IMG/VR virus record: IMGVR_UViG_3300028025_003904
Location: 56,105 to 120,104 of that record
DNA from: a virus
Direction: 5' to 3' (one strand)
Length of the DNA stretch: 64,000 nucleotides
Part shown: positions 11,681 through 56,693 of the stretch, one piece after another
How the letters are laid out: every line of letters begins with the position of its first letter
How positions within the stretch are numbered: the stretch's first letter is position 1
Made by a program: the position numbers and the translations under genes
The notes under the pieces: model-generated
Database searches by the model: none
What the model was told of the DNA's origin: nothing
The model's input: only the letters and a program-made list of their open reading frames with translations

Positions 11681-11705
11681 TTTTTATTTCTCCTTATATC
11701 TTTTA

Positions 11706-11714
11706 TATAAATAT
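11706..11714 (-). promoter_or_regulatory. Putative late promoter ATATTTATA (tail tube)
   Basis: Recurrent intergenic 9-mer, with TAAGGAG SD at 11690-11696. Confidence 0.65.
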
Positions 11715-11730
11715 ATCTTTTTTAAATTTA

Positions 11731-14010
11731 TTATGCTCCAAACGTTGCACCAGTTGGTAAAATGTTGAAGTCAATTTGGATAAATTCAGCAGTTTTAGTA
11801 GGTTGTAAGAAAATTGCTCCTTGTAAGATGTTTCTATCAATCACATCTGGTGTGTTGTTTGAATCATCCATTACAACTCTAAATGCGTATAAACCTTGTC
11901 TTTGTTGGATACCCTCTAAATATGGATTTACAGTATTTAAGAATTTGTTTCTAGTTTCTGCCGTATTTTGTTCAAATACCAAATATCTCGAAGTAGATGC
12001 GATATACTTTTTAACTGTAATCAACAATCTTCTTACGTTAATTCTATCTAATGCAGATGGTCTAGATTGTAAAGTCTTTTGTCCAAATGCTACGATACCT
12101 TGTCCTGGGAATTGTGCGATTGGATTGACTTTTCCTTCGTATAATGTATCTCTATCAGAGTGAGTTAAACGATTTACTACACCAATTGCTCCAGTAATAC
12201 CACCACGATTTAAACCTGCTGGTGCGAACCATTCAGCTGCCGTATTATCGTTTGCTGCAAATACCGCTGGCATCAATACCGATGGTGGAACTGCTACCAT
12301 TTTGTTAGTATTCAAATCAATTGTCTTAATCCAAGGGTAGTAAGTTGCTGCGTAGTTAGTATCTAAACCTTCTGCTACCTCAACTGCTCCATCAATTGTA
12401 CCATCTTGTGCTACTGAATCCATAATATAGAAACAATCAGTACGAGCTTCACACAAATCAATACCCGCTTGTGCTACTGATGGGTGTAATGTTTGAATAA
12501 CACCCGGCATAACTACCAAATTAATATCATATTCATCCTGATTAGAAATTGCATCCAATGCTTTTTGGTATGCTATCGAACCATTTTTTGCAGATGTTGA
12601 TAAATCAAATCCTTGTGAGTTTACATTTGTAATAGAAGTTCCTTTAGCTATTGTTTTAGCCGGGCTCATACCATCAAAACCACCTTGTAATGCTACTGCA
12701 AATGTTCTTTTAGATACATCACCCGCATTCGAACCAGTTAATGGTAGTCCAGCATCACCATCCAATGAGAATGTAAGTGTAGTTGTTGCGTTAGCAGGAA
12801 TTGGTTTTAAGAATTGTGCATTATCTGTTGCAAATGTTCCTTCAAAATCAAATCCACTTACATAAGATGAAGTAGTTGCTGATTTTGTTTGGTATCCAAC
12901 TTTTGGTAAGTAATTTAATACTGCACCAGTTGCGTATATTGGATATTGATAACCAGCATTACCATATGGTGCAGCGGTTACAGGAATTACATCTGGATTT
13001 ATTGGTGTAATGTAAATATAACGAGATTTGTTAGAATAATCACCATATTCAGTAATTTTTCCACTTGCATCTGTTTGTATATATCTATCACCAATTGCTC
13101 TTGCAATATAGTTAGGTGATGTTGGGTCTAAATTTAAATTAGAATAAGTTTCTAATACATTTTTTCTCTTATCGGTATCAGCGTATTTTCTAACTTGCAA
13201 TGTAAATGTTGCGTAATCTGAACCAGCAACTGAACCAGCTGCCTTAACATCTGAAATTATAATTTTAAATCTTGTGTTTTCAGCATTACCATCGGAAATT
13301 GTATTTACTTTAAATAAATCATAACGGCTACCACCTATTAGTTGTGATTGAATATATGGAGTTGAAGCTCCAACTGCATCACTATTAAAATTTTGTAATG
13401 GTAAAACTACAAGTGATGCTGAATTAATAGCCGATGCACTAATAGCTGCTGCATCTGTAAATGATACATATGAGTAAGCGTTTTTGTTACCCATTGCATT
13501 TGTTCCAAATACTTTAGTTACTGCCAATGGGTCAGCTGGGTTTAATGATGCATAATATGTATCACCAATTTGACTACCAGATATTTCAATATTGTGTGAA
13601 CCAATTGATTCATAATGAGTTCCAGCAAATGAAGCAGATGTATTAGATTGTTCTGTATTGTTTAATACATATAACAATGATGATGATACTGCTACTCCAC
13701 CAGTAATACTACCAATTAATCCAATTGGTCCTAATTCTTTATATCCACCCAATCCAGCAACTCTTACGATTGTTGCTACACCAGTTTCTCTTAAATAATT
13801 TTGTACTGCATTTTCAGTATAATAAGTGCTATCAACAACACCAAAAATATCTTCAAATTCAGATTGAGTATTTACAATTGTAGGTTTGAATGCTGGTCCC
13901 TGCTTTAAAGGTCCGATGAAAACTCCACCGATTGCACCAACACCCTGTGCTATAAAAGATAAATCATTCTCTCTAGTGAAAACACCAGGTGATACGATTT
14001 TTTCAGCCAT
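11731..14010 (-). CDS. Tail sheath protein (T4 gp18-like)
   Basis: SPGVFTRE, YYPW, WFAPAG.NRG, GQKTLQ..PSALDRINVRRL and QPTKTAEFI motifs. Confidence 0.95.
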   Translation of the reverse strand: MAEKIVSPGVFTRENDLSFIAQGVGAIGGVFIGPLKQGPAFKPTIVNTQSEFEDIFGVVDSTYYTENAVQNYLRETGVATIVRVAGLGGYKELGPIGLIGSITGGVAVSSSLLYVLNNTEQSNTSASFAGTHYESIGSHNIEISGSQIGDTYYASLNPADPLAVTKVFGTNAMGNKNAYSYVSFTDAAAISASAINSASLVVLPLQNFNSDAVGASTPYIQSQLIGGSRYDLFKVNTISDGNAENTRFKIIISDVKAAGSVAGSDYATFTLQVRKYADTDKRKNVLETYSNLNLDPTSPNYIARAIGDRYIQTDASGKITEYGDYSNKSRYIYITPINPDVIPVTAAPYGNAGYQYPIYATGAVLNYLPKVGYQTKSATTSSYVSGFDFEGTFATDNAQFLKPIPANATTTLTFSLDGDAGLPLTGSNAGDVSKRTFAVALQGGFDGMSPAKTIAKGTSITNVNSQGFDLSTSAKNGSIAYQKALDAISNQDEYDINLVVMPGVIQTLHPSVAQAGIDLCEARTDCFYIMDSVAQDGTIDGAVEVAEGLDTNYAATYYPWIKTIDLNTNKMVAVPPSVLMPAVFAANDNTAAEWFAPAGLNRGGITGAIGVVNRLTHSDRDTLYEGKVNPIAQFPGQGIVAFGQKTLQSRPSALDRINVRRLLITVKKYIASTSRYLVFEQNTAETRNKFLNTVNPYLEGIQQRQGLYAFRVVMDDSNNTPDVIDRNILQGAIFLQPTKTAEFIQIDFNILPTGATFGA

Positions 14011-14048
14011 TTTTAATTTCTCCTTTTAATAATAATTTTTTATCTTAA

Positions 14049-14057
14049 TATAAATAT
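14049..14057 (-). promoter_or_regulatory. Putative late promoter ATATTTATA (tail sheath)
   Basis: Recurrent intergenic 9-mer, with AAGGAG SD at 14020-14025. Confidence 0.65.
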
Positions 14058-14086
14058 ATAAGATTGTGATGAAAAGATATATTTGT

Positions 14087-14329: not shown

Positions 14330-14387
14330 AACTTTGTTGTTTATTTTATATATATAAATATATAGTTTTGTACCCAAACATCAAAAT

Positions 14388-15338
14388 TTAACCGATTTTT
14401 TCTTTAATTTCTTCTATTTGCTTTTGTTGTTCTTTAATTGCTTCAATTAATAATGCTACAATTTTTTCGTATTGAACTGCAAGGTATCCTGAATTTCTTT
14501 CTACTACAATTTCAGGTAAGATTTCTTGTATTTCTTGTGCTATTATACCAACATCTTTACCTTTTTGGTTATGTATTTCACCAAATCCTTCTTTCCAATC
14601 AAATGTATTACCACTAATTTTGTTTATTTTAGATAATGCATCTACGATTGGTTCAATTTTTTCTTTTAATCTCCTATCGGATGAAAAATATGCAGTAATA
14701 TCACCAGTTGCAGTTATTGCTCCTTGTACTGCTATACCACCAGTAAACGTTCCTCCACCAAATGGATTACCCGTAGGTCCCGTAGGACCGGTTGGACCAG
14801 TTGGTCCAGTTGCACCTGCTGCTCCTTGTGGACCGGTTGGTCCAGTTGCACCTGCTGCTCCTTGTGGACCAGTTGGACCCGTAGGTCCTTGATTACCTTG
14901 AGTTCCGTTTGAACCGCTTGGTCCTTGATTACCTTGTGGACCAGTTGGGCCAGTAGGTCCTTGATTACCTTGCGTACCATTTGAACCATTTGGTCCTTGA
15001 TTACCTTGCGGACCGGTTGAACCATTATTTCCGTTTGGTCCTTGATTTCCCTGTGGTCCTTGTACTCCAGATGTACCAGAAGTAGCCGCAGTATATGATG
15101 TTCCATTTATACTTAATGGTCCTAATAATGATAATGAACCAGTCAATCCCAACGAACCGGTCATAGTATGTGTATCATCTAACGAATTACCAAAGTTAAA
15201 TGAACCTGATACGGATGATTGTGTAACATAATATACAGATGTTGATATGATATATTGTTCGGCAGTAATATTTCCTTTTACAGATAAACTACCCGTTACA
15301 TTTAATGAGCCAGTAATCGAACTACTATGTATTTGCAT
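14388..15338 (-). CDS. Collagen-like fibre protein with C-terminal peptidase S74 intramolecular chaperone
   Basis: Gly-X-Y repeats, then [10 protein letters not shown]...DVGIIAQE...[14 protein letters not shown]. Confidence 0.85.
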
Positions 15339-15340
15339 TA

Positions 15341-18300
15341 TTAACTATTTTTTAATTTTTCTATTTCGTTTCTTAACTCTACAATTTGAGATTGTTGTTC
15401 TTTTATTGCTTCTATAAGCACCGCAGTTAAACCTCTTTCTCTTACCGTTAAATATCCATTATCACCCATTCTTACTAATTGCGGGAATACCTTTTCTACT
15501 TCTTGTGCTATAACCCCTATATCTTTTGTAACACCCATAAAGGTTGCGTGGATTGCTTTACCATTCCATTCGTATTCGTATCCATTTAATCCCATTACCT
15601 TATCCAATGCTCCAGCGATTGGAGTTAGATTATCTTTTAATTGAATATCAGATGGAGTACCAAACGATGCAACATCACCACTTGCTACAATTGAGCCTGA
15701 AACTTGTAATCTATCAGTTGTATTATCAGATGCAACAGGTCCAATTAAAACATTAGTACCATTATCAGTAATTTGAGTTGCAGTTCCTAATGTAGATGAG
15801 GTTGCAAATTTAACTACTTTATTTGTAGTTCCACTTACAGTTACCGTACCACCAGTTGCCGATGTACCCGATGTTCCACTTGCTCCAGTTGCTCCTTGAT
15901 TTCCTTGTGGACCGGTTGGTCCAGTTGAGCCAGCTGCTCCTTGTGGTCCAGTTGCTCCTTGTGCTCCACTTACACCCGATGTACCAGTTGCTCCTTGATT
16001 TCCTTGTGCTCCGTTTATTCCACTTGTACCATCAATTCCACTTGTACCATTTAATCCACTTGTACCACTAACACCTGATGTACCAGATGTTCCGTTTGCT
16101 CCCGATGTTCCATTTTCTCCATTTGAGCCAGTATTACCTTGAGGTCCTTCTGCACCTTGAGGTCCTATTAGACCAGTTGCACCTTGATTGCCTTGCGGAC
16201 CAGTTGGTCCTTGATTACCCTGTGCTCCACTTGTACCATTCGTTCCAAAGAAAGTACCATTTACACCCGATGAACCAGATGAACCAGATACCCCCGTTCC
16301 TACACCAAATGTAAACATAGCATAACCAGCGAATGGAACACTAAATGTTATTGTTGTTTGGTTTATAGAATCGGATTTAATTGATTGTGGTATCATTACA
16401 TACCCATTAACATCATATATGGTTACTGATGGGTATTCGTTTCCTAACGCATGGGTTATTACCCAAGTTGTATCTTCTACTAATTGTGTATGTGTGTATG
16501 CCGAACCATTTGTTGTTCCCGATGTACCAGTTGTACCGGATGTTCCACTTGCTCCTTGATTTCCTTGTGGTCCAATTGGTCCTAAATCGGAAATGTTAAT
16601 CGTTCCTTGCATTGAAGAATGAAACTGACAAACATAGTATAGTGTACTAGGAGCATTGTATGGTATTGCAAATGTAATCGTACCACTTTGAGTTCCGTTA
16701 TTTGTTACACCACTATTATATACATTACCAGAACTATATGCTCCAGCAGTAGTTTGTATCCAAAACGGATGACCTGTTGCACTTACTGTAAATGTATATG
16801 TAAATCCACGTATTAAATTTAAAGTTGGATTAGATGCACCATCTATTGTATATGCAGATGCTCCACTATTAACAACGCTAAAGTTTCTTGCTCCACTTAT
16901 TCCAGATGTACCAATTGTACCTTGCGGTCCTTGTGCCCCATCTACCCCACTTGTTCCATTTGCTCCGTTTACACCAGATGTACCATTTGTACCATTTGCT
17001 CCAGATGTTCCACTTACACCCGATGTTCCGTTTGTACCATCTAAACCAGAAGAACCCGATGTTCCGTTATTTCCACTACTTCCCGATGAGCCACTTAATC
17101 CACTAGTACCATTTTCTCCGGATGTTCCAGATGAACCACTCAATCCATGTGTACCACTTGAACCACTAGTACCGTTTACACCACTTGTACCATTTGCACC
17201 AGTTTCTCCTTGAACTCCTTGAGGTCCAGTTTCACCCTGATTTCCTTGTGGGCCGATTGGTCCTTGTCTACCTTGTGAACCATCATCACCTTGCGGACCA
17301 GTTGGTCCTTGATTTCCTTGCTGTCCATTTGGTCCTTGATTACCTTGTGGTCCGATATTTCCTTGTACTCCGGTTTCTCCTTGTGTTCCTTGTGGTCCTT
17401 CAATTCCTTGATTACCCTGCGGTCCAGTATTTCCTTGATTACCTTGATTACCTTGCGTTCCTTGTGGACCTGTGTTACCAGTTGGACCTTGCAAACCAGT
17501 TATTCCTTGCGGACCACTATCTCCTTGTCTTCCTTGCGGACCAGTATTACCCAATGCACCTTGTGCACCAATATCTCCTTGAACTCCTTGCGGTCCAGTT
17601 GGTCCTTGATTACCCTGCGTTCCATCGATTCCTTGATTACCTTGTGAACCAGTTGCTCCTTGATTACCTTGTGGACCAGTTTCTCCTTGATTTCCCTGTG
17701 CTCCAGTTGGTCCTTGATTACCCTGTGTTCCATCAATACCTTGATTTCCTTGTGGACCAGTTGGGCCCTGATTTCCTTGTGTACCATTGATACCTGATGT
17801 TCCATCTACACCAGTTGTTCCCGATGTACCAGCACTACCAGCCGTACCTGATGTAGACCCAAAGTAAGAGTCTATTTGTTTAGCAGTTACAATTACTGAT
17901 GGTGTATCAGGACGAGTTGGATTGGTTAAACCACTTTGTGCAGCTAATCTCGCAGTACTATCCGGAGATGTAAAGGCAAATTGTACATAATCGTTTGCAT
18001 TTAAATCAAAAAAGAATGAAACAAATGGTATCATCTCTGCATCTGGTGCAGTAAGTTGTACTATACTTGTACTACCACTAACTGCTTGTCCATTTACCAA
18101 TGCCCAAAAAGAAAACTCATCTGTATTTGAACTTGTCTTTGTTATTTGTGGTGATATACCAAATTCATATGTTGCACTTGTAGATACTTTTAAATGAGAA
18201 CCACTCTCTATAACGATACCATTGGATTGTCCAGTAGTATTAAACGTCATAATTGTTGCTATGTTTGAACCAGAAACAATTTGAGTTTGTGTTGAACTGA

Positions 18301-27334: not shown

Positions 27335-28705
27335 TTAAATTCCGGTTAATGTGTAGTATATACCAGGACCAAATGAATCGGCGCAACTTACATAATTACC
27401 ACCACCATCTGTTTGAATTGTTACATATACATCTATATCAGAACCAACAATTGAATTAGCTGCGCCACATAGGAATGAACCCGTACAATTTTGTGTATAA
27501 CATGCTGATATATTAGTACCAACATTATCCGTTGCAAAGTATGATATGGTTGAACCAGTTGTTAAAGTTACAACTCCCATATTTACATAAGTAGATGAAG
27601 ATACAGCCGATGCGGTTAGATACCCATTTGTAGTGGTTGCGAATATATCATTATTTGTATTCCAATATATTTTAGCATTCGTGTTAGTAGGCGATACACT
27701 ACCACTAACTCTTGCGTAAAATGTAACGGTTTGTTGTGCAGATTGTACAGGAGAACTCAATGTAAATCCAAAGTTTGTATTACCCAATGGTGATTCAACA
27801 ATTACAATTGAACCAGTTACCGTTGATAATTTATTAAAACTTGCACTTCCAGCTGCCGAACCTGATATTCCATTTATTTTACCACGTCTTTTTAGAGCTC
27901 TGTTATGAATAGTACTACCTCTAAATCCAGTATCAATTACATTAGAACCAGAGTATTGAACTATAAATCTATCAGGTAATTCACCCGAATCATAAGTAAG
28001 TGTAACTGCACCAAATGTTGTTCCTAAATCTACTGAATATGAATATGAACCAGTTACTCCGCCCAAATATTTAACCTCTGCAACATCTGCTGCTAATGTA
28101 GTTAAAGAACCAGTTGCTGGTAAATTATATTGAGATGTATATGTATAAAAATCGTTTGGAGCATCTTCGTAAAAATAATATGCTTCGGGTATTGGAAAGG
28201 TTGTCCTATCAGGCCCAGCCAATCCACCATATGCAGATGAAATAAACGCAAAACAAGGACACAATTCACCATAAGATGCACTATATAATACTAAATTTCC
28301 ATTTATTATCATTTCAGCACCACGTGGTAAGAATGCATCTACACTTGATGAGTAAGCAGCTGCTACGGATGCATATCCAACACCCTGTTGTTGTTGGACC
28401 ATCCACCATTGGTCGTGAAATCTTCTTGCTTTGAATGGTACATTTGGTCCTAATACAGGCCAATAACCCAACACTAACCCATCATATAATCTACCACAAT
28501 TTGCAGATGCGGATGTATCATTGTATCCACCAAACTCACCAATAGTTACTGGATAAGTATCGTTTATCTCCGGTGCTCCGGTTAGATTGACATTCTTATA
28601 TACATCATTTTGAGCTGCAGTTAATGAAAACGAACTAGCTGTCAATGACATTTCTGTCCGTATGTCCCCTAATGATATTTTTGAACCTGATGATGGTAAA
28701 GGCAT
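27335..28705 (-). CDS. Putative fibre-tip/adhesin-like structural protein
   Basis: MPLPSSG..IS..I..E N-terminus like 36761..37711. Ser/Thr-rich, with a late motif at 28729. Confidence 0.55.
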   Translation of the reverse strand: MPLPSSGSKISLGDIRTEMSLTASSFSLTAAQNDVYKNVNLTGAPEINDTYPVTIGEFGGYNDTSASANCGRLYDGLVLGYWPVLGPNVPFKARRFHDQWWMVQQQQGVGYASVAAAYSSSVDAFLPRGAEMIINGNLVLYSASYGELCPCFAFISSAYGGLAGPDRTTFPIPEAYYFYEDAPNDFYTYTSQYNLPATGSLTTLAADVAEVKYLGGVTGSYSYSVDLGTTFGAVTLTYDSGELPDRFIVQYSGSNVIDTGFRGSTIHNRALKRRGKINGISGSAAGSASFNKLSTVTGSIVIVESPLGNTNFGFTLSSPVQSAQQTVTFYARVSGSVSPTNTNAKIYWNTNNDIFATTTNGYLTASAVSSSTYVNMGVVTLTTGSTISYFATDNVGTNISACYTQNCTGSFLCGAANSIVGSDIDVYVTIQTDGGGNYVSCADSFGPGIYYTLTGI

Positions 28706-28736
28706 ATATAAAAGTATTATTCAACTAATATAAATA

Positions 28737-38213: not shown

Positions 38214-40250
38214 TTATTTATTCTTTAATTCGTCTAATTCAGCTTTCAATTCTTTGATTGCTTCTATAATAAGTGGAACAATCTTTTCGTATTTAACCGT
38301 TAAGTAGTTCTCACCCGATTTAGATATAATTTCACCACTTTCTAATACTAATCTATCTATTGGTGCTAATACTACTACCTCTGGTAATACTTCTTGTACC
38401 TCTTGTGCCGATACTCCGACTTGTTGCTCATCTGTTGTATAACCCAATGATTTAGCCACATCACTATTTGTGTAGTGGAAACCATTTAATTGTTGTACTT
38501 TTGATAATGCGTTTTCAATATTACCAATTCTTACTTTTAATCTATCGTCAGATGAATATGCCGTAATATCACCAGTTGCAGTAATTGCTCCTTGTACCGC
38601 TATACCTCCGGTGAATGTACCACCACCAAATGGGTTTCCAGTTGGTCCAGTTGGTCCAGTTGCTCCTGTTGGGCCTGTTGCTCCTGTTGGTCCTTGTCTA
38701 CCTTGTGGGCCTGTTGGTCCAGTTGGGCCTGTTGCTCCCGTTGCTCCTTGTGGTCCAGTTGCTCCCGTTCCACCCGTTGCTCCTTGTGGTCCAGTTGCTC
38801 CCGTTCCACCCGTTGCACCTTGTGGTCCAGTTGGTCCTTGTACTCCGTTTGCACCATTAGAGCCAGTTGCTCCAGATGTACCAGAAGTGGATGCTATGTA
38901 AGATGTTCCATTTATAGTTAAATCACCAACTACACCAATTGAACCACTAACTCCTAAAGAACCAGTTATTTGAGTTGCCGATACTATGTTTACCAATGTA
39001 CCATTATCTGTAATGTTTGAGTTAGCAACGTGCTCTCTCCCACCACCTTTTAATAAACTATTAGCCGTAGGGTATGTTTCATTACCTAAATCATTATATG
39101 TTTCTGGTCCTACCAAAAATACAGATGATGTTACAATAGTACCATCTCCTCTGTGTACAAATATAAATTCATCTAAAACTGAATCATAAAGGAATGAACC
39201 AGAACCACCCGTTGAACCACTATCTACTGAAACTACACCTGAAAATCTAACTGCTGGATTATCGGTATTTAATATTACTGTGTTTGTCCCAATACTTACC
39301 GCAGATGCAGTAATGTTTTGTACCGATGATGAACCTTGTACTACGAAATTAGAACTAACAAAAAGAGAACCAGTAATTACTTGAGTTCCAGTAAATGTAT
39401 TATCACCACTTAATTTAGCGTAAGTCGTTACTGCACTACCACTATATGCGGATGCTGATGCAAATGCTCCAGCTGCTGCTTGCGTAGCAGTTGTGATATT
39501 ATCAGTTTGAGTATTATTTGTTGTTGCAATACTTGCACTTAAAGCAGTTTCACCTGCTAAACTTGCAGAGAATGATGTTGCTGCACTAGCACTATAAGCA
39601 GATGCGGAAGCAAATGCCCCAGCTGCCGATGCAGATGCTGCAGTAATGTTGGTATTAGCTGATTGTGTGTAATCGTTGAATGAACCAGTAGTTGCGTAGA
39701 TTTGTGCTACACCAGCTGATGATGAATTTGCTACTTGTTGAGTAACGTTTCCATTACCATCTACTACGTTGATTGAACCAGTTGTGATTTGAATATTACC
39801 AATTTGAATACCACCACCCGCAATACCATTGATTGTGGTTACTACCTGATTTGTAGTTGGGTCAACCATTTTGATTGAAGCAGTAGAAATGTAAAGGTCT
39901 CTCCACATTTTTGTTTCACTACCTAAATCAAATGCGTTATCATTTGAAGGTATAAGAGATGAACTTAAACTAGCTACAACATTTACACTATCAGATGTAT
40001 TATCACCGATTGTAATGTTTCCACCCAATGTAAGGTTTCCATCTACTTTAGCATTACCAGTAATATTTAATGAAGAACCCGATATTCCACCGAATACTGC
40101 ACTACTACCTGTACCTGCTATTGCCAATGTTACATCACCACCGTCTAATCCGATTTGTAATGTCTGTAAATCTGTGTTTACATATGGTTCTCCGAATTGG
40201 AGTGAACCTGATTTCTGCGAGTTATTACCGCGTCTAAATTTAAGTGCCAT
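38214..40250 (-). CDS. Fibre protein with collagen repeats and S74 chaperone
   Basis: LKFRRG...L.FGEPYVNT start, GXY run, then SDDRLK...VGVSAQEV...[14 protein letters not shown]. Confidence 0.85.
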
Positions 40251-40304
40251 TTAGTTTACCTTTTTTTTAGTTATGTACCCTTATAAATATAAAGTTTTTT
40301 TTTA

Positions 40305-41908: not shown

Positions 41909-44900
41909 TTAGAATGAACCACCATCTATGGTATTACTCATTACGAAATCAGTACCATTCCATTGTGCTATATCACCAGCCGTTGTAGGTGCTGCTATAA
42001 ACTCAATGTTATCAGTTAAACCTCTAAATGCTAATCGTTTGGTTGAAGAACCTCCCGGTACATTTAGTGAAGCAGTTACACTACTGAATGATACATTGTT
42101 TGCCGTACCAACTCCTTGTATTGAACCACTACCTTCTAATGTATCTAATCTACTATCTACCGATGTAGATAAAGCGGTTACACTAAATGCACTTGCAGAG
42201 AATGAAGTTGCTACTGAACTACTAAAGTCACCAGTTATACTTGCAACACTTGCGTTACTAGCACTAAATGAAGTTGCAATTGAAGAACTAAAATCACTAT
42301 ATCCAAATGTTCCACTTAATGCAGTTTGTACTGAAGATGTGAATACATTATCACCAGTTGCTAAAAGAACTTTTGATTCACTATCTTTTACACCAGCTTT
42401 CCAATAATCATTTGTTGAATCCCAAATTAAAGAACCAGTTGCTAAATTAGGTGATGTTACGTCTTTTACATATAAACCACCATTAGATGCACCACTTCCA
42501 TTTAATTGGATAATATTATCACCTAATTCAATTGTAGTTGAATTAACCGAAGTTGTTGTACCTCTTACTAATAAATCACCTTGAATTGTTACATTTGAAC
42601 CAGTTAGTTCAATTGCTGTTTTTAACGATGATGAATATGATTCTAATGCACCTATTCTATCAGTTTGTCCGTTATCAGTAGTTGCAATTGAAGCACTTAA
42701 TGCAGTTTGTGATGCCGCACTCGCAGAGAATGATGTTGCTGCACTTGCTGAATTAGCCGTTGCAGTTGCCGCACTTGCACTAAATTGAGTGTAAGTAGAG
42801 CCTGATAAAGTATTAAAATCAGATGCTGCCGATGCACTATTTGCAGTTGCAGTAAATGCACTTGCAGAGAATTGAGTAAAAATTGAACCACTAAAATCAC
42901 CAGTTGTACTTGCTACCGATGCAGATAATGCTGCTATTTGAGCGTTACTTGCAGAGATTGAAGTTGCTGCACTTGCCGAATTAGCCGTTGCAGTTGCTGC
43001 ACTTGCACTAAATTGAGTGTAAGTAGAACCAGATAGAGTATTGAAATCTGATGCCGCACTTGCAGAGTTAGCTGATATTGTAGCCAAACTTGCAGAGAAC
43101 GATGTTGCTGCTGATGAACTATTTGCAGTTATAGTTGCTGCACTTGCAGAGAATTGTGTATAAGCAGAACCACTTAATGTGTTAAAGTCAGATGCCGCAC
43201 TTGCAGAGTTTGCAGTTATTGTAGCTAAACTTGCAGAGAACGATGTTGCTGCCGATTCACTATTTGCAGTTGCAGTAAATGCACTTGCAGAGAATTGAGT
43301 ATAAGCGGAACCAGATAATGTGTTAAAGTCGGATGCTACACTTGCAGATAAAGCCGTTTGAGAAGCTAAACTTGCAGAGAATGAAGTTGCTGCCGATGCA
43401 GAGTTTGCAGTATATCCAGCAACACTTGCACTAATTCTTGTATCAAATGATGCAGAATCTGTGTAATAAGATTGTGTAAATGCTAAATAAGAACCAGAAA
43501 TAGTTTCCAAATTAGAAACTCTTGTTCCTAATGAACCACCACCACCGATTGAACTTTCAATTGTATCTAATCTAGTATCAACTGATTGTGAGTAAAGAGT
43601 TACATTACCAATACCAGTAATTGTAGATGAACTAATTTCGCCAGTTACATCCAAACCACCAGTTAAAGTAATTTTACCGGCCGATTGGCTCATTATGGAA
43701 TCACCAATGTGATTTTCACCTGTACCAACCTGAATATACCCAGCTGTTATTCCAATTTCTTCACCTAATGAACCAGTATTTTTTGGTCCAGCGATAAGTA
43801 TTGCCGAATTGTATTCTTCGTTACTTCCAGATGGTTGTACATATATCCAGTGATTAGCAAGTGAATCCCAAAATAATGAACCAGATACACCTGCATTAGA
43901 ACCAGAATCTTGTACACTTACACCACCAAATCTAACCGCAGGAGTTGCATTGTTTAATACGATTGTATTATCACCAATATCTAAAACTGATGCAGTAACA
44001 TTAAATAGTGATGAAGAACCATACACAATTAAATCTTGCGTAATGTACATCGAACCAGTAATTACCTGATTACCTATGAATATATTAGAACCAGTAGTTG
44101 CAAATCTTGTATCATTAAATTCAAGTGAATCTAATCTACTATCTACCGAAGTTGATAATGCTAATACCGATGCTGCTGATGCCGAATCCGTAGTTGCAAT
44201 AGATGCAGATAATGAAGCTACACTAGCTGCACTTGCAGAGAATGAAGTTGCTACTGAAGAACTAAAATCACCAGTTACACTTGCTACCGAAGCAGATAAT
44301 GATGTGATGTTATAGTTACTTGCTGATATTGAAGTTGCAGTAGATGCACTATTTGCACTAATTGTTGCGTAACTTGCAGAGAATGAAGTAGCTGCCGATG
44401 AACTATTTTCAGTTGCAGTAGCTGCACTCGCAGAGAATTGAGTTGCTACTGAACCAGAGAAAGTACCATCAAAATATGATTGTGATGCTTCTAATGCAGA
44501 TACTCTAGTTCCAATACCACTTCCTGAACCACCTAAAGATGCTTCTAAATCTGTTATTCTTGTATTAACAGAACCAGAGAATGGTTGGATGTTACCAACT
44601 AAATTGATTGCTTCGTTTCCATCGCTACCTAATAAGAATAAAGTAGAACTACCACTTGCGTAGTAAGGAACTCCTTTAAGCATTCCATTGTAAGTAGATG
44701 CAGAAAATACATTAGGGTTGGATGACCCCATTAAAAATCTGTTCGTAGCTTGTACCGAACCTGATTCAGGAACAATAAAAGATAATGCCGTTCCGTTTGT
44801 TGTGGTTAGGTTAGCGGACCCAGTAGCTAATACTATTTCACCTTTTTGTAGTGAGCCAGTTACCTCGCTTAATTTTTCTAGACTACCACGTCTGTGTTTG

Positions 44901-44914
44901 ATTATTTGTGCCAT
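41909..44914 (-). CDS. Long Ser/Ala-rich fibre protein with internal tandem repeats
   Basis: IKHRRG...LQKGE start, repeated ANSASAA/SDFNTLSGS/TQFSAS units, ends IDGGSF. Confidence 0.75.
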   Translation of the reverse strand: MAQIIKHRRGSLEKLSEVTGSLQKGEIVLATGSANLTTTNGTALSFIVPESGSVQATNRFLMGSSNPNVFSASTYNGMLKGVPYYASGSSTLFLLGSDGNEAINLVGNIQPFSGSVNTRITDLEASLGGSGSGIGTRVSALEASQSYFDGTFSGSVATQFSASAATATENSSSAATSFSASYATISANSASTATSISASNYNITSLSASVASVTGDFSSSVATSFSASAASVASLSASIATTDSASAASVLALSTSVDSRLDSLEFNDTRFATTGSNIFIGNQVITGSMYITQDLIVYGSSSLFNVTASVLDIGDNTIVLNNATPAVRFGGVSVQDSGSNAGVSGSLFWDSLANHWIYVQPSGSNEEYNSAILIAGPKNTGSLGEEIGITAGYIQVGTGENHIGDSIMSQSAGKITLTGGLDVTGEISSSTITGIGNVTLYSQSVDTRLDTIESSIGGGGSLGTRVSNLETISGSYLAFTQSYYTDSASFDTRISASVAGYTANSASAATSFSASLASQTALSASVASDFNTLSGSAYTQFSASAFTATANSESAATSFSASLATITANSASAASDFNTLSGSAYTQFSASAATITANSSSAATSFSASLATISANSASAASDFNTLSGSTYTQFSASAATATANSASAATSISASNAQIAALSASVASTTGDFSGSIFTQFSASAFTATANSASAASDFNTLSGSTYTQFSASAATATANSASAATSFSASAASQTALSASIATTDNGQTDRIGALESYSSSLKTAIELTGSNVTIQGDLLVRGTTTSVNSTTIELGDNIIQLNGSGASNGGLYVKDVTSPNLATGSLIWDSTNDYWKAGVKDSESKVLLATGDNVFTSSVQTALSGTFGYSDFSSSIATSFSASNASVASITGDFSSSVATSFSASAFSVTALSTSVDSRLDTLEGSGSIQGVGTANNVSFSSVTASLNVPGGSSTKRLAFRGLTDNIEFIAAPTTAGDIAQWNGTDFVMSNTIDGGSF
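42700..43420 (-). repeat. Degenerate coding tandem repeat (about 141-nt unit built from 87- and 54-nt subunits)
   Basis: Recurring plus-strand GCACTTGCAGAGAA and peptide SDFNTLSGSxYTQFSASA (four copies). Boundaries approximate. Confidence 0.75.
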
Positions 44915-45000
44915 TTTTTTGAGTTATTCCCTTTTTGTTTTTTTCTTTATATAAATATATCAAAACCTTTTAATCAATTGTTTTTTTTTGTATTATATTT

Positions 45001-48062: not shown

Positions 48063-49154
48063 TTAAACTATTATTTTACCAACAATAGAAACCTCGTCCG
48101 ATATTGGATTTAATCCAAAACCAAGTAATCCAGCATCAAAAGTTACAACATAGTTGTTTCCATTTTGAACTCCCGTCCAATATGCTTTTGAGTATTTTAC
48201 ACCATTTATATAAACTTTAATACCATCCGTTGCCGTTACTGAAAGTTCCGATGGTGGTGTTACTAATTTTGTATTACTAAATGTAATTTGGTATGTTCCT
48301 GTAATTGTACCGATTTTACTATTATATAAGTTGATATAATCAAATAAGATTTTATTATCATTGTAATCATTCATCGTAATTCCAGCAGTCAAAGCATCTC
48401 CTGCTGATTTGTTTATATCAGTTTCTAATGTAGTAACAACTGCTCTCGTTGATATTGATTTTTTGATTGTACTTTCGTTGTTTGCAGATTCAGGTAAAAG
48501 ATATGCATAAGTTGTTAGTGAAAAATTACTACGAACTAATCTTTCTTGATTATCTGTAACTTCAGTTACACCCTCAAATCCATCTATTGTAGTTCTAAAC
48601 TTAAAACCATCACGTTCTCCCCAATACTCCTGACTAGCCCATTGAAATTGTTCAACTATACTATTCATATGTTCTGTATAGTTTGTCCAAATCATAATAT
48701 CATATGTAACATTTACATAATCAGGCATCGTAATATCAATGATTTCTTTTCTAGGTTTAAAATTATTTAACAAAGAAAATTTATCATATCTGTTTTTATT
48801 AGAATATCCAACGTAAGATTGATAATGTAATTGGCGATTTGGCATTGCCATCGTTTCATTTGGGGTTTGGCCGGTACGTTTGAACATAACCAATGGTAAT
48901 TGTATCTTACCTCTTTGGTCTCTATATACACCATCTATTTGTGCAGATTTCCATCTTTCAGCATTTCCGTATATTATAGGAATTGTTATCTCTTTACCAT
49001 CCAATTTTAACTTTGGAACAATAACATCTCTCATATACGAAAATATTGCCTCATCCACATCGTATATACTAATACCACGCTTATAGGTAATACCTTCTCT
49101 CGGCATTTGTTCTGCACGATTGATTGGTTTTCGTAGTGGATTATTTGTTGCCAT
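48063..49154 (-). CDS. Tail terminator / sheath stabiliser (T4 gp15-like)
   Basis: IPIIYG.AERW, LPL..F.R, PDYV..TY...IWT.Y...MN.IVEQ. Follows the neck genes. Confidence 0.7.
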   Translation of the reverse strand: MATNNPLRKPINRAEQMPREGITYKRGISIYDVDEAIFSYMRDVIVPKLKLDGKEITIPIIYGNAERWKSAQIDGVYRDQRGKIQLPLVMFKRTGQTPNETMAMPNRQLHYQSYVGYSNKNRYDKFSLLNNFKPRKEIIDITMPDYVNVTYDIMIWTNYTEHMNSIVEQFQWASQEYWGERDGFKFRTTIDGFEGVTEVTDNQERLVRSNFSLTTYAYLLPESANNESTIKKSISTRAVVTTLETDINKSAGDALTAGITMNDYNDNKILFDYINLYNSKIGTITGTYQITFSNTKLVTPPSELSVTATDGIKVYINGVKYSKAYWTGVQNGNNYVVTFDAGLLGFGLNPISDEVSIVGKIIV

Positions 49155-49155
49155 A

Positions 49156-49611
49156 TTATTCTACTCTTGGTTTAATATTCAATTGTGATAAACGAGTCAA
49201 ACGTGTTGTACATTCGATACCGAAATTGTTTTCTGATTGCATACCTACCAATTGTGTTTGATTAGTATTTGTAATTTCATAGAAACTATCATTGAAATAA
49301 AAGAAATCACCAACTTCTGGATAAATATCTTTAACAATACAAGTGTCTTGATTTACTCTAACTACTACCTCTTGTTCCGTATCTTGTCCAAATCCATCGT
49401 ATTGTTGAGTCTCATCCCCATATTGTAAAACTGCGAATATAGATACACCATCATAGTACGATTTGTCCAAAGATTCACCATATAGGTTTACCTTTGTTTC
49501 ACCCACTATAAGTTTATAAAAGAACACTTGTGTTTGTATTACCGAATCCACAAGCTCTCTACTTATATTTTGGAAAAAATTATAATCTCTTGTACCTATA
49601 AAACGTGGCAT
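49156..49611 (-). CDS. Head closure / neck protein (T4 gp14-like)
   Basis: NLYGES...PEVGD..YF....YEI motifs and gene order. Confidence 0.7.
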   Translation of the reverse strand: MPRFIGTRDYNFFQNISRELVDSVIQTQVFFYKLIVGETKVNLYGESLDKSYYDGVSIFAVLQYGDETQQYDGFGQDTEQEVVVRVNQDTCIVKDIYPEVGDFFYFNDSFYEITNTNQTQLVGMQSENNFGIECTTRLTRLSQLNIKPRVE

Positions 49612-52424: not shown

Positions 52425-52667
52425 TTAAAAGAAAAATGCATTCCAAACACACTCAACAGGCCGTTGATACCTTTCACCAGCTCTATGATTATGTTGGGCA
52501 GAGAATGAATGGGATGGATAAATAGATTTAACTACCTCCATTGTACACGTCCCAGCGTACTCATTAATACCTATCAGTTTTGCTCGTAAGGTTGGAGAGA
52601 AGTTCTCTGGTGTATCTTCACCTACTACCTTAACTAAATCCGTAATCTTACTATCTGAATATCTCAT
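52425..52667 (-). CDS. Hypothetical protein
   Basis: 80-aa ORF in the island. Confidence 0.65.
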   Translation of the reverse strand: MRYSDSKITDLVKVVGEDTPENFSPTLRAKLIGINEYAGTCTMEVVKSIYPSHSFSAQHNHRAGERYQRPVECVWNAFFF

Positions 52668-52674
52668 AGTTTTA

Positions 52675-52863
52675 TTATTTAAAAGATTTTAAGTTCATTA
52701 TAAGAAATGCGTTGGTTTTTTTGTAAACGCCAGATGAAACACAATGGTTAGCAAACATTACATCGTTTTTTGTGATAGTGTTTATAATGTGTGATTTGCT
52801 TAAAAAGTCAAAACCACCGGTCAGAGCCTTAATATAATTTTCAAAGTTTGTAAATCGTTTCAT
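52675..52863 (-). CDS. Hypothetical protein
   Basis: 62-aa ORF behind the promoter at 52895-52926. Confidence 0.6.
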   Translation of the reverse strand: MKRFTNFENYIKALTGGFDFLSKSHIINTITKNDVMFANHCVSSGVYKKTNAFLIMNLKSFK

Positions 52864-52894
52864 AATAAAGTATTTATGTTTAACTGATGTTTAG

Positions 52895-52926
52895 TAAAGG
52901 TAAGTAAAATAAATGAGAAAGTCAAG
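52895..52926 (-). promoter_or_regulatory. Repeated host-type early promoter (CTTG-N20-TACCTTTA)
   Basis: Copy of the island promoter repeat. Confidence 0.7.
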
Positions 52927-52942
52927 TCTTTTTTAAAATATT

Positions 52943-53125
52943 TTACAAACTATGTCCTAATTTTTTATTGATTGAAATCATATGTTTACAAGGTGAATAT
53001 CTACGAAACTCTCTAGCTTCACAATTACAACCTGTAATCTTCCAATCTTCAACTATTACTTTGTAGTACTTTAACTTTCCAGTCTTTTTATCTCTACTAC
53101 CCATTTCTGTATAAAACCACTTCAT
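52943..53125 (-). CDS. SWIM zinc-finger protein
   Basis: CNC...........CKH (CxC-xn-CxH). Confidence 0.75.
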   Translation of the reverse strand: MKWFYTEMGSRDKKTGKLKYYKVIVEDWKITGCNCEAREFRRYSPCKHMISINKKLGHSL

Positions 53126-53136
53126 ATTTTTGTTGT

Positions 53137-53196
53137 TTAATAACCTAACATTTTTAAAACTCGCAACCCAAAAAAAATCAAATCTAAAATTTTCAT
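53137..53196 (-). CDS. Possible 19-aa peptide MKILDLIFFGLRVLKMLGY
   Basis: First ATG downstream of the promoter at 53219-53250; hand translated. Confidence 0.35.
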   Translation of the reverse strand: MKILDLIFFGLRVLKMLGY

Positions 53197-53218
53197 ATCT
53201 TTAACTCTTATTACATAG

Positions 53219-53250
53219 TAAAGGTAAGTAAAAATAATGAGAATGTCAAG
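53219..53250 (-). promoter_or_regulatory. Repeated host-type early promoter (CTTG-N20-TACCTTTA)
   Basis: Copy of the island promoter repeat. Confidence 0.7.
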
Positions 53251-53276
53251 TCTTTTTTTAATTATTTTTTAGACAT

Positions 53277-53301
53277 AAAAAAACCCACCGAAGTGGGTTT
53301 T
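53277..53301 (-). terminator. Rho-independent terminator with cUUCGg tetraloop
   Basis: Minus strand AAAACCCAC-TTCG-GTGGGTTTTTTT. Confidence 0.85.
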
Positions 53302-53319
53302 AATATTTTGTAAGTTTAG

Positions 53320-53556
53320 TTATTCTAATATAATAACTGCTCCAGATGAAATTGTTAAATATACTGGATAACAAGGAAATATTTGATGATTATCAATTGA
53401 TGTTAAATTTATAACACCACCACCTGCTAATGCTACACTACCACTTGGATTTCCTTCTCCTCTCATTACACCCCATACATTTGGGTAATCAGTTCCTTTT
53501 CCTAATGCAACCGAACCACTTACGGTTGATACTTTATATGCTCTATAATCTGCCAT
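53320..53556 (-). CDS. Small beta-rich protein, possible head decoration
   Basis: 78-aa ORF in the late operon downstream of the capsid gene. Confidence 0.6.
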   Translation of the reverse strand: MADYRAYKVSTVSGSVALGKGTDYPNVWGVMRGEGNPSGSVALAGGGVINLTSIDNHQIFPCYPVYLTISSGAVIILE

Positions 53557-53582
53557 TTTATTTTTATTTAATTAGTTTATTT

Positions 53583-54449
53583 TTATGCTCCACAAGGTGC
53601 AGTAGATATGATTTCACCTTGACTACCACTTACTTCAAATTTAATTGAACCATCTCCATCAAGTCTATACCAACTAGGTTCTGCTGGCATCCATGCATCT
53701 GAATTTTGATATAATCTATTGCCAACTTCTATTGCCGAGCCACTTACAATATATTGTGTGATTGTATATGTACTAGCACATATATCAGCTTCAAGTAATT
53801 CTTTTGCTAATGTCAACATAGTATGATTACCATTGGTAACATCAATGCTCCAACCTCTTGCATTAAGAACAAAAAGTGATTCTCTTCCTATTTGGCCAGG
53901 TGTTGCGTTAGTTCCAGTCTCATTATTATTATCAAGTTGAATATATCCGTTTGACATACTGCCACTAGCTAATTCTAAAAGAATATTATCTACTGCGGTT
54001 TGAGTTAAAGCACAATTATTAAGTAATATTTCAGTATTATTATCACTCAATGGTTGAGTTCTTGATATAATTACTTCGGTTAATTCGGTGTTACCATTCA
54101 TATCAAACCCTTCCAATGCAGGTAAGTTGGATAAATCTACCGAACCTACTAAATTATTTTGGTCAAAATCAAAATATCGTAAAGAAGTACAATCTGATAA
54201 ATCAGGAAATCCAGCTGAAAAATCATTATCGTCTATATAAAGAGATTGTAATGATGTACATCCACTTAAATCAATAGATGCTAAACAATTTGCACCACCC
54301 ACAACTGCATCTTGGTCACTCACATCTACATAGGTAAGATTGGTTAATCCAGATAAATCAATTGATGTTAAAAAACTCCAATCTGCTCTAAAATCTTGTA
54401 TATTTGTTAGGTTTTGTAAACCTGTTATTGATGTTAATCCTGCTCCCAT
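53583..54449 (-). CDS. Leucine-rich repeat protein
   Basis: LTSIDLSGLTNLTYVDV, LQSLYIDDN and LRYFDFDQNNL repeats. Confidence 0.8.
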   Translation of the reverse strand: MGAGLTSITGLQNLTNIQDFRADWSFLTSIDLSGLTNLTYVDVSDQDAVVGGANCLASIDLSGCTSLQSLYIDDNDFSAGFPDLSDCTSLRYFDFDQNNLVGSVDLSNLPALEGFDMNGNTELTEVIISRTQPLSDNNTEILLNNCALTQTAVDNILLELASGSMSNGYIQLDNNNETGTNATPGQIGRESLFVLNARGWSIDVTNGNHTMLTLAKELLEADICASTYTITQYIVSGSAIEVGNRLYQNSDAWMPAEPSWYRLDGDGSIKFEVSGSQGEIISTAPCGA

Positions 54450-54461
54450 ATTATTTTTATT

Positions 54462-54920: not shown

Positions 54921-54944
54921 AATGTATTATATTGTATTATCCCT

Positions 54945-54953
54945 TATAAATAT
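54945..54953 (-). promoter_or_regulatory. Putative late promoter ATATTTATA (PKD/LRR operon)
   Basis: Recurrent intergenic 9-mer just after the capsid terminator. Confidence 0.65.
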
Positions 54954-54970
54954 ATAGTTTTCCAATAAAC

Positions 54971-55003
54971 AAAAAAAAAGAGAGGATTTCTCCTCTCTCT
55001 TTT
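54971..55003 (-). terminator. Rho-independent terminator after major capsid gene
   Basis: AGAGAGGA/TCCTCTCT stem with a long T-run on the minus strand. Confidence 0.8.
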
Positions 55004-55026
55004 CAATCTATCCGTTTTAGATAAAA

Positions 55027-56673
55027 TTAGATGTTAGCCAAGCCTTCAACTAAAATCTTACCATAAAATTCTGGTCTCACGAGCTTCTTCGCGTAACGAG
55101 TCATAACACCTCTACGTGGAGTAAAGTTATCTGGGTCATACACTAATGGAGTCAAGATTAAAGGTACATATGGAGCATAAACCGCACCAGTCTCAAGGAA
55201 GTTATTTCCTTTGTAACCCAATAAGATTTCGTTAGAAGTCATGTAAGGGTTTTTGTAAACTGTGTAACGATTAGCCAATGAACCTACTTGAGTTACACCT
55301 GCTGCAAATTGTTTAGCATCTTTATCAGCGTTTACAGAGAAAGCTGGGATTGATTCTAAAATAGTACAAACGTCTGGAGAAGCAACGATAAAGTTAGCTC
55401 CACCACGCATTGTCAATTGGTGAATCTTGTTAGATACTTTGTTTAATTTAGTTCCTAAAGTCTGGAACCAAGTGTTTTTAGTGTAAGCACTTGCGTTAGC
55501 TGAATCAGAATCAACTGCGAATGCCGAACCATTCCACTCATTACCAATCTTTGTAGACCAATATTCAGTAGTTAATGCATTTCCTTTCAATAAATCCAAG
55601 ATTTCCAAGTCAATCTCTAAAGAGATATATTCAGATAACATAGCAGTCAATTCAGCTTCTGCATCAATTGAGTGATATGCGTTCAAATCTTGTGCTAATT
55701 CTGGAGTCCACACTGCTTTCAACTTACGAGTTTTAGCAACGATTGCTTCAGATTTCAATTCTAAATCTACTTGAGGAATGTTCAAGTTAGTACCACCTGA
55801 TGGGTTGTTGATAGGGTCTCTATCTTCGAAATCACCACGAGATGTTGCAGTTGGTTGTACTGAATATACTAAACCAATAGTTGCAGCAGTTGAACCTGAA
55901 GCCAATACTGATGAACTTACGATTAACGAAACTTGTCCGTTAGAAGAGTAAGTAGTCAATGCTGGGTAGTAAGTGTTGATTGAACCAGAAGTTCCACCTT
56001 GCAATGAACCAGATACATAGAATGAACGTACTGCGTTAGTATCAGCAGATAATGCTGCAACTGAAGCAGATGCTAAAGTAATTTTGTACAAGTTACCAGC
56101 AGAAACTGAAGCTGATAAAGATGAATCAAAATTGATGTCAGCTAAAGAAGTAACTTTAGTTGCGTTAGCGAAAGATACGATAGCAGATTGGTCATTAACC
56201 GAATATGCATAACGTCCTTCACCATAAAGACCATTTACAGGTGCATTAGTTGAACCTAACTTCGCTGCAGATGTTCCACCATATAAAGATGTGCTAGATG
56301 CATCACCATATCCTTTTCCAGTTGAACCATATTTGAAGTCCATGTAGAAAATCAAACCCGATGGTAAGTTCATTGGTTGAACCGAAACAAATTCCTTTGC
56401 TGCGATTTCACCAAAGATACGACGTACCAAAGGTAAAGCTACACCAGACCATTCTTCAGAACCACCTGAAAAACCTGTCTTTGTAGTCTCATCTAATAAT
56501 TGTTTTGCTTGGTTTTCTAAAATTACAGCCATTCCGTGCTCTTCAGTTGCACCAGTTAAGCCTTCTAATAAACCAGTTTTTTCCCACTTGTTTTTCAACC
56601 CGCGAGTTTGCTCAAGCATAACCGCAGTTGGGTTTTTGCCTTCCATTAATTTGTTTAAATTAAATTGTGCCAT
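55027..56673 (-). CDS. Major capsid protein (T4 gp23-like)
   Basis: KW..TGLLEG, ILENQ, VSVQPM..PSGLIFY, AKTRKLKA.WT.ELAQDL.AYH..DAEAEL, YAPYVPL and PRRGVMTRYA. Confidence 0.95.
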   Translation of the reverse strand: MAQFNLNKLMEGKNPTAVMLEQTRGLKNKWEKTGLLEGLTGATEEHGMAVILENQAKQLLDETTKTGFSGGSEEWSGVALPLVRRIFGEIAAKEFVSVQPMNLPSGLIFYMDFKYGSTGKGYGDASSTSLYGGTSAAKLGSTNAPVNGLYGEGRYAYSVNDQSAIVSFANATKVTSLADINFDSSLSASVSAGNLYKITLASASVAALSADTNAVRSFYVSGSLQGGTSGSINTYYPALTTYSSNGQVSLIVSSSVLASGSTAATIGLVYSVQPTATSRGDFEDRDPINNPSGGTNLNIPQVDLELKSEAIVAKTRKLKAVWTPELAQDLNAYHSIDAEAELTAMLSEYISLEIDLEILDLLKGNALTTEYWSTKIGNEWNGSAFAVDSDSANASAYTKNTWFQTLGTKLNKVSNKIHQLTMRGGANFIVASPDVCTILESIPAFSVNADKDAKQFAAGVTQVGSLANRYTVYKNPYMTSNEILLGYKGNNFLETGAVYAPYVPLILTPLVYDPDNFTPRRGVMTRYAKKLVRPEFYGKILVEGLANI

Positions 56674-56693
56674 TTGTTTTTGTTCCTTATTTG

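Follow-up and report, generated by a model that had tools for sequence, protein, structure and literature searches.

Strong Shine-Dalgarno sites before the tail sheath and tail tube genes of a freshwater myophage, and their possible connection to a phage-encoded bS21 with a long basic tail

The virus record IMGVR_UViG_3300028025_003904 (120,104 bp; CheckV completeness 66%; here G000) raises the question why a phage that most likely infects a member of the Bacteroidota has strong Shine-Dalgarno (SD) sites before a few of its genes, and whether its own ribosomal protein bS21 has to do with them. Ribosomes of the Bacteroidota normally ignore the SD sequence, and the anti-SD of their 16S rRNA is tucked into a pocket of bS21, bS18 and bS6. 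The stretch analyzed here (the window) comprises the 64,000 nucleotides at positions 56105-120104 of the record and is the structural half of a T4-like freshwater (lake) myophage of about 195 kb when complete. The minus strand carries 127 of the 142 retained non-overlapping open reading frames (ORFs) of the contig, and it is the coding strand for every gene at issue (sheath, tube, capsid, fibre and bS21). Gene identities were taken from PHROGs and Pfam profile matches.

The SD score of a start was the duplex energy of its positions -20 to -3 against ACCUCCUUU, the core of a generic 16S tail. Scores of -7 kcal/mol or better were called strong, and ranks were assigned among the 127 ATG-first gene calls of the contig. 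The canonical anti-SD quoted in PMC7797042 agrees with ACCUCCUUU. The sites and genes in question are the following.

14020-14026, minus strand: SD site AAAGGAG of the sheath gene, 9-nt spacer to the ATG at 14010, -8.9 kcal/mol, rank 2/127
11690-11696, minus strand: SD site TAAGGAG (AAGGAG pairs) of the tube gene, 9-nt spacer to the ATG at 11680, -8.2 kcal/mol, rank 4/127
56684-56689, minus strand: weak SD-like TAAGGA of the capsid gene, only AAGGA (5 bases) pairs, 10-nt spacer, -5.1 kcal/mol, rank 16/127
44928-44933, minus strand: AAGGGA, 13 nt before the start of the 1001-aa gene, -5.5 kcal/mol, rank 14/127, background level
40258-40263, minus strand: AAAGGT before the fibre gene 38214-40250, -3.9 kcal/mol, rank 23/127, background level
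62227-62234, minus strand: SD-like GAGAGGGA, 6 nt before the endolysin ATG at 62220, -7.9 kcal/mol
11731-14010, minus strand: tail sheath gene, 759 aa (PHROG 23, E 1.3e-72)
11192-11680, minus strand: tail tube gene, 162 aa (PHROG 4542, E 5.3e-30)
55027-56673, minus strand: major capsid protein gene, 548 aa (PHROG 138, major head protein, E 2.3e-73)
38214-40250, minus strand: tail fibre gene (PHROGs, 1e-26)
41909-44914, minus strand: 1001-aa gene, no family match
61348-62220, minus strand: endolysin gene (PHROG 181, E 4e-68)
58059-58301, minus strand: bS21 gene, 80 aa (PF01165, 54.4 bits; PHROG 21469, ribosomal protein S21)

A preliminary description of the window had given five motif coordinates, before tube, sheath, capsid and two presumed fibres, and all of them were confirmed when read on the minus strand. 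Its statement that most other starts, bS21 included, have A/T-rich leaders without an SD also holds, the bS21 leader scoring only -0.6 (rank 54/127). A canonical SD offers at least 5-6 complementary nt with a spacer of 5-10 nt; the sheath site, with 7 complementary nt, and the tube site, with 6, are both canonical in this sense, and the capsid motif has only 5 complementary nt. When the pairing energy was computed over all starts of the contig, -7 kcal/mol was reached by 9 of 142 (6.3%) compared to 2.4% of 2410 internal ATGs, a 2.6-3.2-fold excess, and none of 200 shuffles gave 9 strong starts. At -5 there was no excess at starts (17/142, or 12.0%, compared to 12.7% of internal ATGs), and -4 was attained by 18.8% of internal ATGs. 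Three of the 61 starts in the window reached -7, namely those of sheath, tube and endolysin. We conclude that the SD sites of sheath and tube are real and exceptional, that SDs are scarce in the genome, in keeping with a Bacteroidota phage, and that the capsid motif and both fibre motifs, each taken alone, are no better than chance. The weak motifs reported before two fibres are therefore correctly placed but at background level, and only one of the two genes is a fibre by PHROGs.

The preliminary description had further assigned the SDs to the highest-copy virion genes. This is correct for sheath and tube, but the capsid has the weakest motif of the three, and other genes of the contig carry strong sites besides the endolysin (contig coordinates):

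50336-51463: UvsX/RecA-like recombinase gene, AAAGGAG, -8.4 kcal/mol
36766-37371 (outside the window): 2OG-Fe(II) oxygenase-like gene, AGGAG, -7.3 kcal/mol
99-aa gene: strong SD, -7.7 kcal/mol

The close relative G031 (complete genome, 194,856 bp; sheath 85% identical) includes the large terminase gene (TerL), which lies outside the G000 contig. Its TerL leader scored -11.4, its endolysin orthologue -8.5, and a 115-aa gene has a strong site in a leader that is a near copy of the sheath leader. Because strong sites also precede the endolysin gene, the UvsX-like gene and, in G031, TerL, a rule based on the highest-copy virion genes fails. A gene of the tryptophan-halogenase family (contig 52474-54009, outside the window; Pfam E 1e-110) scored -6.0 here and -8.4 in G031.

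The viral collection contains at least 595 sheath relatives. Leaders were pooled from several locus sets in which contigs are sometimes duplicated, so distinct 30-nt leaders were counted. Among the sheath leaders, 15 of 59 reached -7; all 15 have GGAG 6-10 nt before the ATG, 13 of them at 9-10 nt. The tube gave 15 strong leaders out of 57, with spacers of 8-11 nt. Over half of the family lacks an SD at these genes altogether, with leaders weaker than -5 (34/59 for the sheath and 30/57 for the tube), those of Flavobacterium phage vB_FspM_immuto among them. In sister group B, whose sheath is 62% identical, AAGGAG is constant, while the spacer and the upstream bases vary. The sheath and tube SDs are conserved among relatives despite otherwise diverged leaders. 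They are also the only strong sites common to orthologues of this clade and group B; a gene of 51-70 aa came near (-9.3 in group B vs -6.6 in this clade), and the UvsX site is restricted to this clade. The AAGGA of the capsid gene is kept in L306/307/354 and L310-313 and missing in L324 and G072.

It could be asked whether these purine-rich motifs bind ribosomes at all, or whether they arose by chance, or serve as a regulator site or in mRNA 5'-end stability near a late promoter. The coding strand of the window has 41 copies of AAGGAG, whose position before a start is what matters, and weak matches at starts are at background. A promoter-like sequence stands 9-22 nt upstream of the sites:

14049-14057, minus strand: ATATTTATA, candidate late-promoter element upstream of the sheath SD
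11706-11714, minus strand: ATATTTATA, candidate late-promoter element upstream of the tube SD

However, the distance from this element to the ATG differs between the two genes (38 vs 25 nt) and that from the SD to the ATG is fixed. The excess of strong matches over internal ATGs, which no shuffle equaled, argues against chance, and a hexamer complementary to the anti-SD core stands at canonical spacing in 30 distinct strong leaders. We judge it very improbable that these motifs are anything but ribosome-binding sites.

The ATATTTATA element was found in 18 copies on the coding strand vs 1 on the other strand, and 13 copies lie within 60 nt upstream of starts. Further copies precede the starts at 54920, 50782, 44914, 40250, 37711, 28705, 19660 and 9799, and phage immuto has a similar sequence, GATATTTATAAT, upstream of its sheath and tube genes. 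If ATATTTATA is a late promoter, the 5' leaders would therefore be short.

The second question concerns the phage bS21. Its match to PF01165 (cut-off 27 bits) has an E value of 1.3e-15. Its KPS motif (K39-P40-S41), located between the two helices, aligns with the KPS of Flavobacterium johnsoniae and other bS21 chains, and in the gapless alignment after KPS, Arg53 stands opposite Tyr54, and Lys54 opposite Ile55, of F. johnsoniae bS21 (7jil); the phage residue opposite Tyr54 is called residue 54 below. The tail after KPS has 39 aa and a net charge of +9. The N-terminal half found its best solved chains in 9i5v (E 3.6e-11) and 7jil (E 2.5e-10), the next reaching only 5.7e-4, and the nearest named proteins have Bacteroidota names. 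The 80 nearest cellular bS21 loci among 185,579 species genomes, 78 of which have Bacteroidota names, encode proteins of 55-65 aa with Tyr (77), His (2) or Phe (1) at residue 54 and tails of 13-23 aa with a net charge of -1 to +4; none has a tail of the phage type. By these comparisons, the N-terminal half of the phage bS21 is host-like (Bacteroidota type) and the C-terminal half is not.

Both differences fall on features that matter in the Bacteroidetes ribosome. The 16S tail turns to the bS18/bS6 pocket at the place where Tyr54 stacks on A1534, and the Bacteroidetes-specific features linked to anti-SD occlusion are Tyr54 and a less basic C-terminal part of bS21 (passages of PMC7797042). The phage protein has the N-terminal part of the Bacteroidia-type anti-SD-occluding bS21 (Jha et al. 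2021) but neither its aromatic residue 54 nor its short, weakly basic C-terminus, and its gene is not preceded by the rpsU-type extended SD of Flavobacteriia. Genes for bS18 and bS6 were each absent from the 5 phage records searched, so bS21 is the sole pocket component that these phages could replace. The distance from the bS21 gene to the capsid gene downstream of it is 1.4 kb here; in 43 of 80 related capsid loci, bS21 is likewise upstream, at 1.2-2.3 kb. bS21 of the P0011 type occurred at 4 loci in the viral collection, all distant. The two genes just upstream of bS21, at 59492-59782 and 58306-58668 (both minus strand), both start with M-I-K-L.

To relate bS21 to SD use, the bS21 of relatives was divided into an extended class (tail 27-63 aa, net +9 to +15, always Arg54) and a short class (55-73 aa, tail 14-25 aa, net +4 to +7, residue 54 R/K/Y/H). 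The extended class comprises type i (78-80 aa, ending ...IPKK[FY]...), found in this phage, L310-313 and L324/G072, and type ii (71-110 aa, ...GD..RF[FY]TKKKK...). A similarity between the two tails is not evident by eye, and type ii is about equally similar to E. coli and Bacteroidota bS21. The sheath or the tube reached -7 in 9 of 10 records with extended Arg54 bS21 (G000, G003, G031, G055+G109, G072, G084, G085, G096 and G092), in none of 5 with short bS21 (G017 with Tyr54; G043, G090 and G100 with Arg54; G047 with Lys54) and in none of 3 complete genomes without bS21 (G019, G025 and phage immuto). The SDs are thus far from equally common in relatives lacking bS21. Group B contigs do not reach the capsid region; they were linked to type i bS21 through a 10.7-kb overlap of G055 and G109 (7131 + 3568 nt, 99.4% and 99.2% identity), the G055 sheath being identical to that of G007.

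The capsid leaders gave a similar picture. A score of -7 or better was reached in 13 of 25 rows of the extended class, in none of the 17 of the short class, in none of the 18 in which at least 2.5 kb of upstream DNA contained no bS21 and in none of the 3 complete bS21-less genomes; where the upstream DNA was too short to tell, 5 of 21 rows reached it. "None near the capsid gene" was counted apart from "none" because most contigs miss the capsid region and the bS21 of G087 lies about 105 kb from its capsid gene. Within the head region (capsid gene and 4 kb on each side), -7 was reached by 35 of 150 genes in type ii phages, 7 of 162 in those with short bS21 and 11 of 175 in those with none near. 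The genome census compared the starts at -7 or better with internal ATGs of the same genome. The extended class gave 6.3% vs 2.3% in G000, 5.7% vs 2.7% in G031, 7.5% vs 2.0% in G007 (assigned via the G055/G109 link), 12.8% vs 2.9% in G085 and 3.1% vs 2.0% in G072. The values were 0.9% vs 3.0% in G043 (short) and, in genomes without bS21, 2.1% vs 2.1% in G019 and 3.4% vs 2.5% in G025 (160 of 245 kb). SD frequency within 10 kb of bS21 showed no clear difference when 80 loci were grouped by residue 54; this neighborhood is uninformative for the present clade.

Loss of Tyr54 alone was ruled out as the explanation, since short Arg54 or Lys54 phages (G043, G047, G090, G100 and many capsid loci) are without SD-led late genes. 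These comparisons give partial support to the view that the correlate of SD-led sheath, tube and capsid genes is the long basic tail of an Arg54 bS21, and neither bS21 as such nor the loss of Tyr54 by itself. The preliminary description had proposed that SD and phage bS21 form a two-part switch favoring capsid, sheath and tube. An SD-poor genome, conserved sheath and tube SDs and the absence of these SDs where bS21 is lacking agree with it, but the mere presence of bS21 is not what goes with SD use, the capsid gene of this clade lacks a strong SD, and the SD-led set extends to non-virion and low-copy genes (UvsX, the endolysin and, in G031, TerL).

In 7 (L326, L332, L333, L335, L338, L339 and L346) of 15 distinct type ii sequences, L314 being counted among the 15, GGAGA, mostly as AAAGGAGA, directly adjoins the chosen bS21 ATG. 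This is too close for a normal SD, and either the start was set wrongly or the arrangement is special. Between L437 (G055; 15110-16432) and L438 (G109), which are otherwise 99% identical, there is a 1.3-kb insertion or deletion in a region of internal repeats, probably in a fibre gene.

How could the phage bS21 act on these sites? Most phage genes start without an SD, like host genes, and the SD-led set is small: sheath, tube, endolysin and the UvsX-like recombinase, with TerL in the complete relative. The phage bS21 would itself be made from an SD-less leader, and unmodified host ribosomes could therefore translate it. Its host-like N-terminal half is predicted to dock on the 30S platform, where it would occupy the site of host bS21. 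With Arg instead of Tyr54, the residue stacked on A1534, and with a long, strongly basic tail as in the bS21 of SD-using bacteria, it may no longer hold the 16S 3' tail in the pocket. The ribosome would then regain SD-anti-SD pairing, and the few SD-led phage mRNAs would be initiated preferentially. We give a probability of roughly 0.5 to this reading, in which the rebuilt phage bS21 releases the host anti-SD and favors a short list of SD-led phage genes, not chiefly the capsid. What was observed comprises the motifs with their excess over chance and their conservation, the features of the phage bS21, and the co-occurrence of SD sites and bS21 forms in relatives; the host, the incorporation of phage bS21, the release of the anti-SD and the effect on translation are what we infer.

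Several observations weigh against this proposal. G087 has an extended bS21, but its sheath and tube score only -6.4 and -5.5 and its strong starts are at background (2.5% vs 2.6%). Arg or Lys at residue 54 does not suffice, since phages whose short bS21 has either of them lack the SDs. None of the 98 head-region genes of type i phages, the clade of G000, reached -7, and clade E (G072, L324) is without a capsid SD. Strong sites occur at background rate in bS21-less phages too. The gene of 51-70 aa (contig 49035-49247, outside the window; orthologues in G031, G007, G043 and G019) keeps a (C/T)GGAG-type site in every clade examined, with -9.3 in G007 and -10.0 even in bS21-less G019. The raw co-occurrence counts are inflated by shared descent: the capsid tree has only 2 changes of bS21 class, hence 2 independent contrasts in an independent-pairs test, with which a sign test cannot reach significance. 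Finally, rpsU of F. johnsoniae forms a 13-bp SD-anti-SD helix that leaves no steric room for bS21 (as described in PMC13000457). It is therefore not obvious that bound bS21 and pairing are compatible; the helix would have 6-7 bp here.

The main rival builds on the same points. The SD sites may be functional and yet independent of phage bS21, being read by host ribosomes that lack bS21 or through a basal SD capacity, with shared ancestry behind the co-occurrence. F. johnsoniae has ribosomes without bS21, which translate the SD-led rpsU better (PMC9976891, PMC13000457), only two independent contrasts stand behind the association, and the small gene has its strong GGAG even in G019. The lack of SD-led sheath or tube genes in the 3 complete bS21-less genomes and the 5 short-bS21 records speaks against it, as does the fact that two tail types (IPKK[FY] and GD..RF[FY]TKKKK) each accompany SD-led late genes. 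We regard this rival as unlikely, though a serious competitor.

A host effect would be another explanation: the SD-positive clades may infect a lineage that reads SDs, in which case the SD sites and the bS21 form alike would mirror that host. We infer a Bacteroidota host from the N-terminal half of bS21, the cultured relative and the SD-poor, A-rich leaders. In favor of a host effect, the relatives by capsid and sheath include a phage recorded on Microcystis, and type ii bS21 is about as near to that of E. coli as to that of Bacteroidota. Nevertheless, the SD-positive genomes reach -7 at only 2.5-13% of starts, far below the expectation for an SD-using host. The best matches of the N-terminal half include the F. 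johnsoniae chain (E 1e-10 to 1e-11 vs 6e-4 for the next), all 80 nearest cellular loci are short and aromatic at residue 54, none of them with the phage-type tail, and the closest cultured relative infects Flavobacterium. A host effect of this kind is accordingly judged quite improbable.

Returning to the release of the anti-SD by the rebuilt bS21, its extension beyond this phage is more tentative: it is conceivable, at somewhat under even odds, that some Bacteroidota phages turn SD-blind ribosomes into SD-reading ones through a rebuilt bS21, a private channel in which two tail designs would serve the same function. To our knowledge, bS21 is the ribosomal protein that phages carry most often, and the Bacteroidia ribosome is the one case we know of in which bS21 decides whether the anti-SD can be used. 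The finding ties the role of phage bS21 to the occlusion of the anti-SD in Bacteroidia and yields a concrete, falsifiable prediction: a host that does not otherwise recognize SDs should regain this ability through an Arg54 phage bS21 with a long basic tail, and the leaders named above should respond. Phage bS21 of the short Arg54, Lys54 and Tyr54 forms and the bS21-less relatives provide natural controls. If the prediction is true, a virus would be altering the start-site rule of the host ribosome rather than merely competing for ribosomes.

The surroundings of these genes contained further features.

14388-15338: second tail fibre gene (PHROGs)
10036-10872: baseplate hub gene (PHROGs)
56694-57890, minus strand: 398-aa gene in the interval between bS21 and capsid, no PHROG or Pfam match

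The nearest cultured relative is Flavobacterium phage vB_FspM_immuto (capsid identity 52%), and the relatives also include Microcystis phage Mel-JY01 and a 484-kb uncultured phage. Metatranscriptome contigs from 4 runs of 3 studies cover the capsid and 398-aa genes, the latter in 4/4 runs, and one contig of 2072 nt, from a relative, spans 56495-58626 with bS21 included. Contigs from RNA libraries give no transcript ends, strand or level and may stem from DNA carry-over, and stretches they leave uncovered (bS21 in three runs) are uninformative. The same leader, (A)GTTAAACAT(A/T)AAA..., recurs 10-20 nt upstream of the ATG in several small genes, at the window starts 51941, 51274 and 52863 and, outside the window, before contig 2826-3131, 3222-3452, 38403-38783 and 38863-39183; it may be a promoter or a common leader for genes of a different temporal class. 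The contig also has a PhoH gene (44009-44800, outside the window), an auxiliary gene, and a region at about 27,700-34,400 (outside the window) in which the ORFs of both strands are all short, a candidate tRNA cluster.

In the full-text literature outside subscription journals and supplements, we found no paper tying phage bS21 to SD-led phage genes, and no description of an Arg54 long-tailed phage bS21. The nearest system is that of the freshwater myophages assigned to Bacteroidetes hosts by Chen et al. 2022 (PMC9723584). As here, these are large lake myophages with bS21 among the head genes (TerL, portal, protease and major capsid protein; here it lies near the capsid gene), and contigs from RNA libraries cover the capsid region. 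Chen et al. proposed that phage bS21 substitutes into host ribosomes and, late in infection, favors phage transcripts. Their phage bS21 differs in having an aromatic residue 54 in all cases analyzed, compared to Arg and a long basic tail here, and in a gene on the opposite strand to the structural genes, where ours lies on the same (minus) strand; the main text of PMC9723584, in which the terms RBS, ribosome binding and motif do not occur, has no analysis of SD sites in phage genes. The bS21 of Pelagibacter phage HTVC008M is likewise phage-encoded and was reported to enter ribosomes of a heterologous host (Mizuno et al. 2019, via PMC9976891). It is distant (50% identity over 40 residues), its host is alphaproteobacterial, and the cited passage draws no link to SD.

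Two cellular systems share part of the logic, as the portions of their reports cited here describe them. The bS21 paralogues of Francisella tularensis (PMC9578407, PMC12262407) resemble the present case in that an alternative bS21 gives ribosomes different mRNA preferences, but they are cellular, belong to an SD-using bacterium and involve neither a phage nor anti-SD occlusion. In F. johnsoniae (PMC7797042, PMC9976891, PMC13000457, PMC13000453), anti-SD occlusion and the autoregulation of rpsU embody the shared idea that the bS21 status of the 30S subunit frees the anti-SD, so that SD-led mRNA is preferred, and truncation of bS21 there frees the anti-SD and enhances SD-dependent initiation (PMC13000457). 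There, bS21 is encoded by the SD-led gene, and lack of bS21 acts as the switch. In the phage, by contrast, the bS21 gene is SD-less (-0.6), the SD-led genes are those for tail, lysis and recombination, and the switch would be the predicted replacement of host bS21 by a variant.

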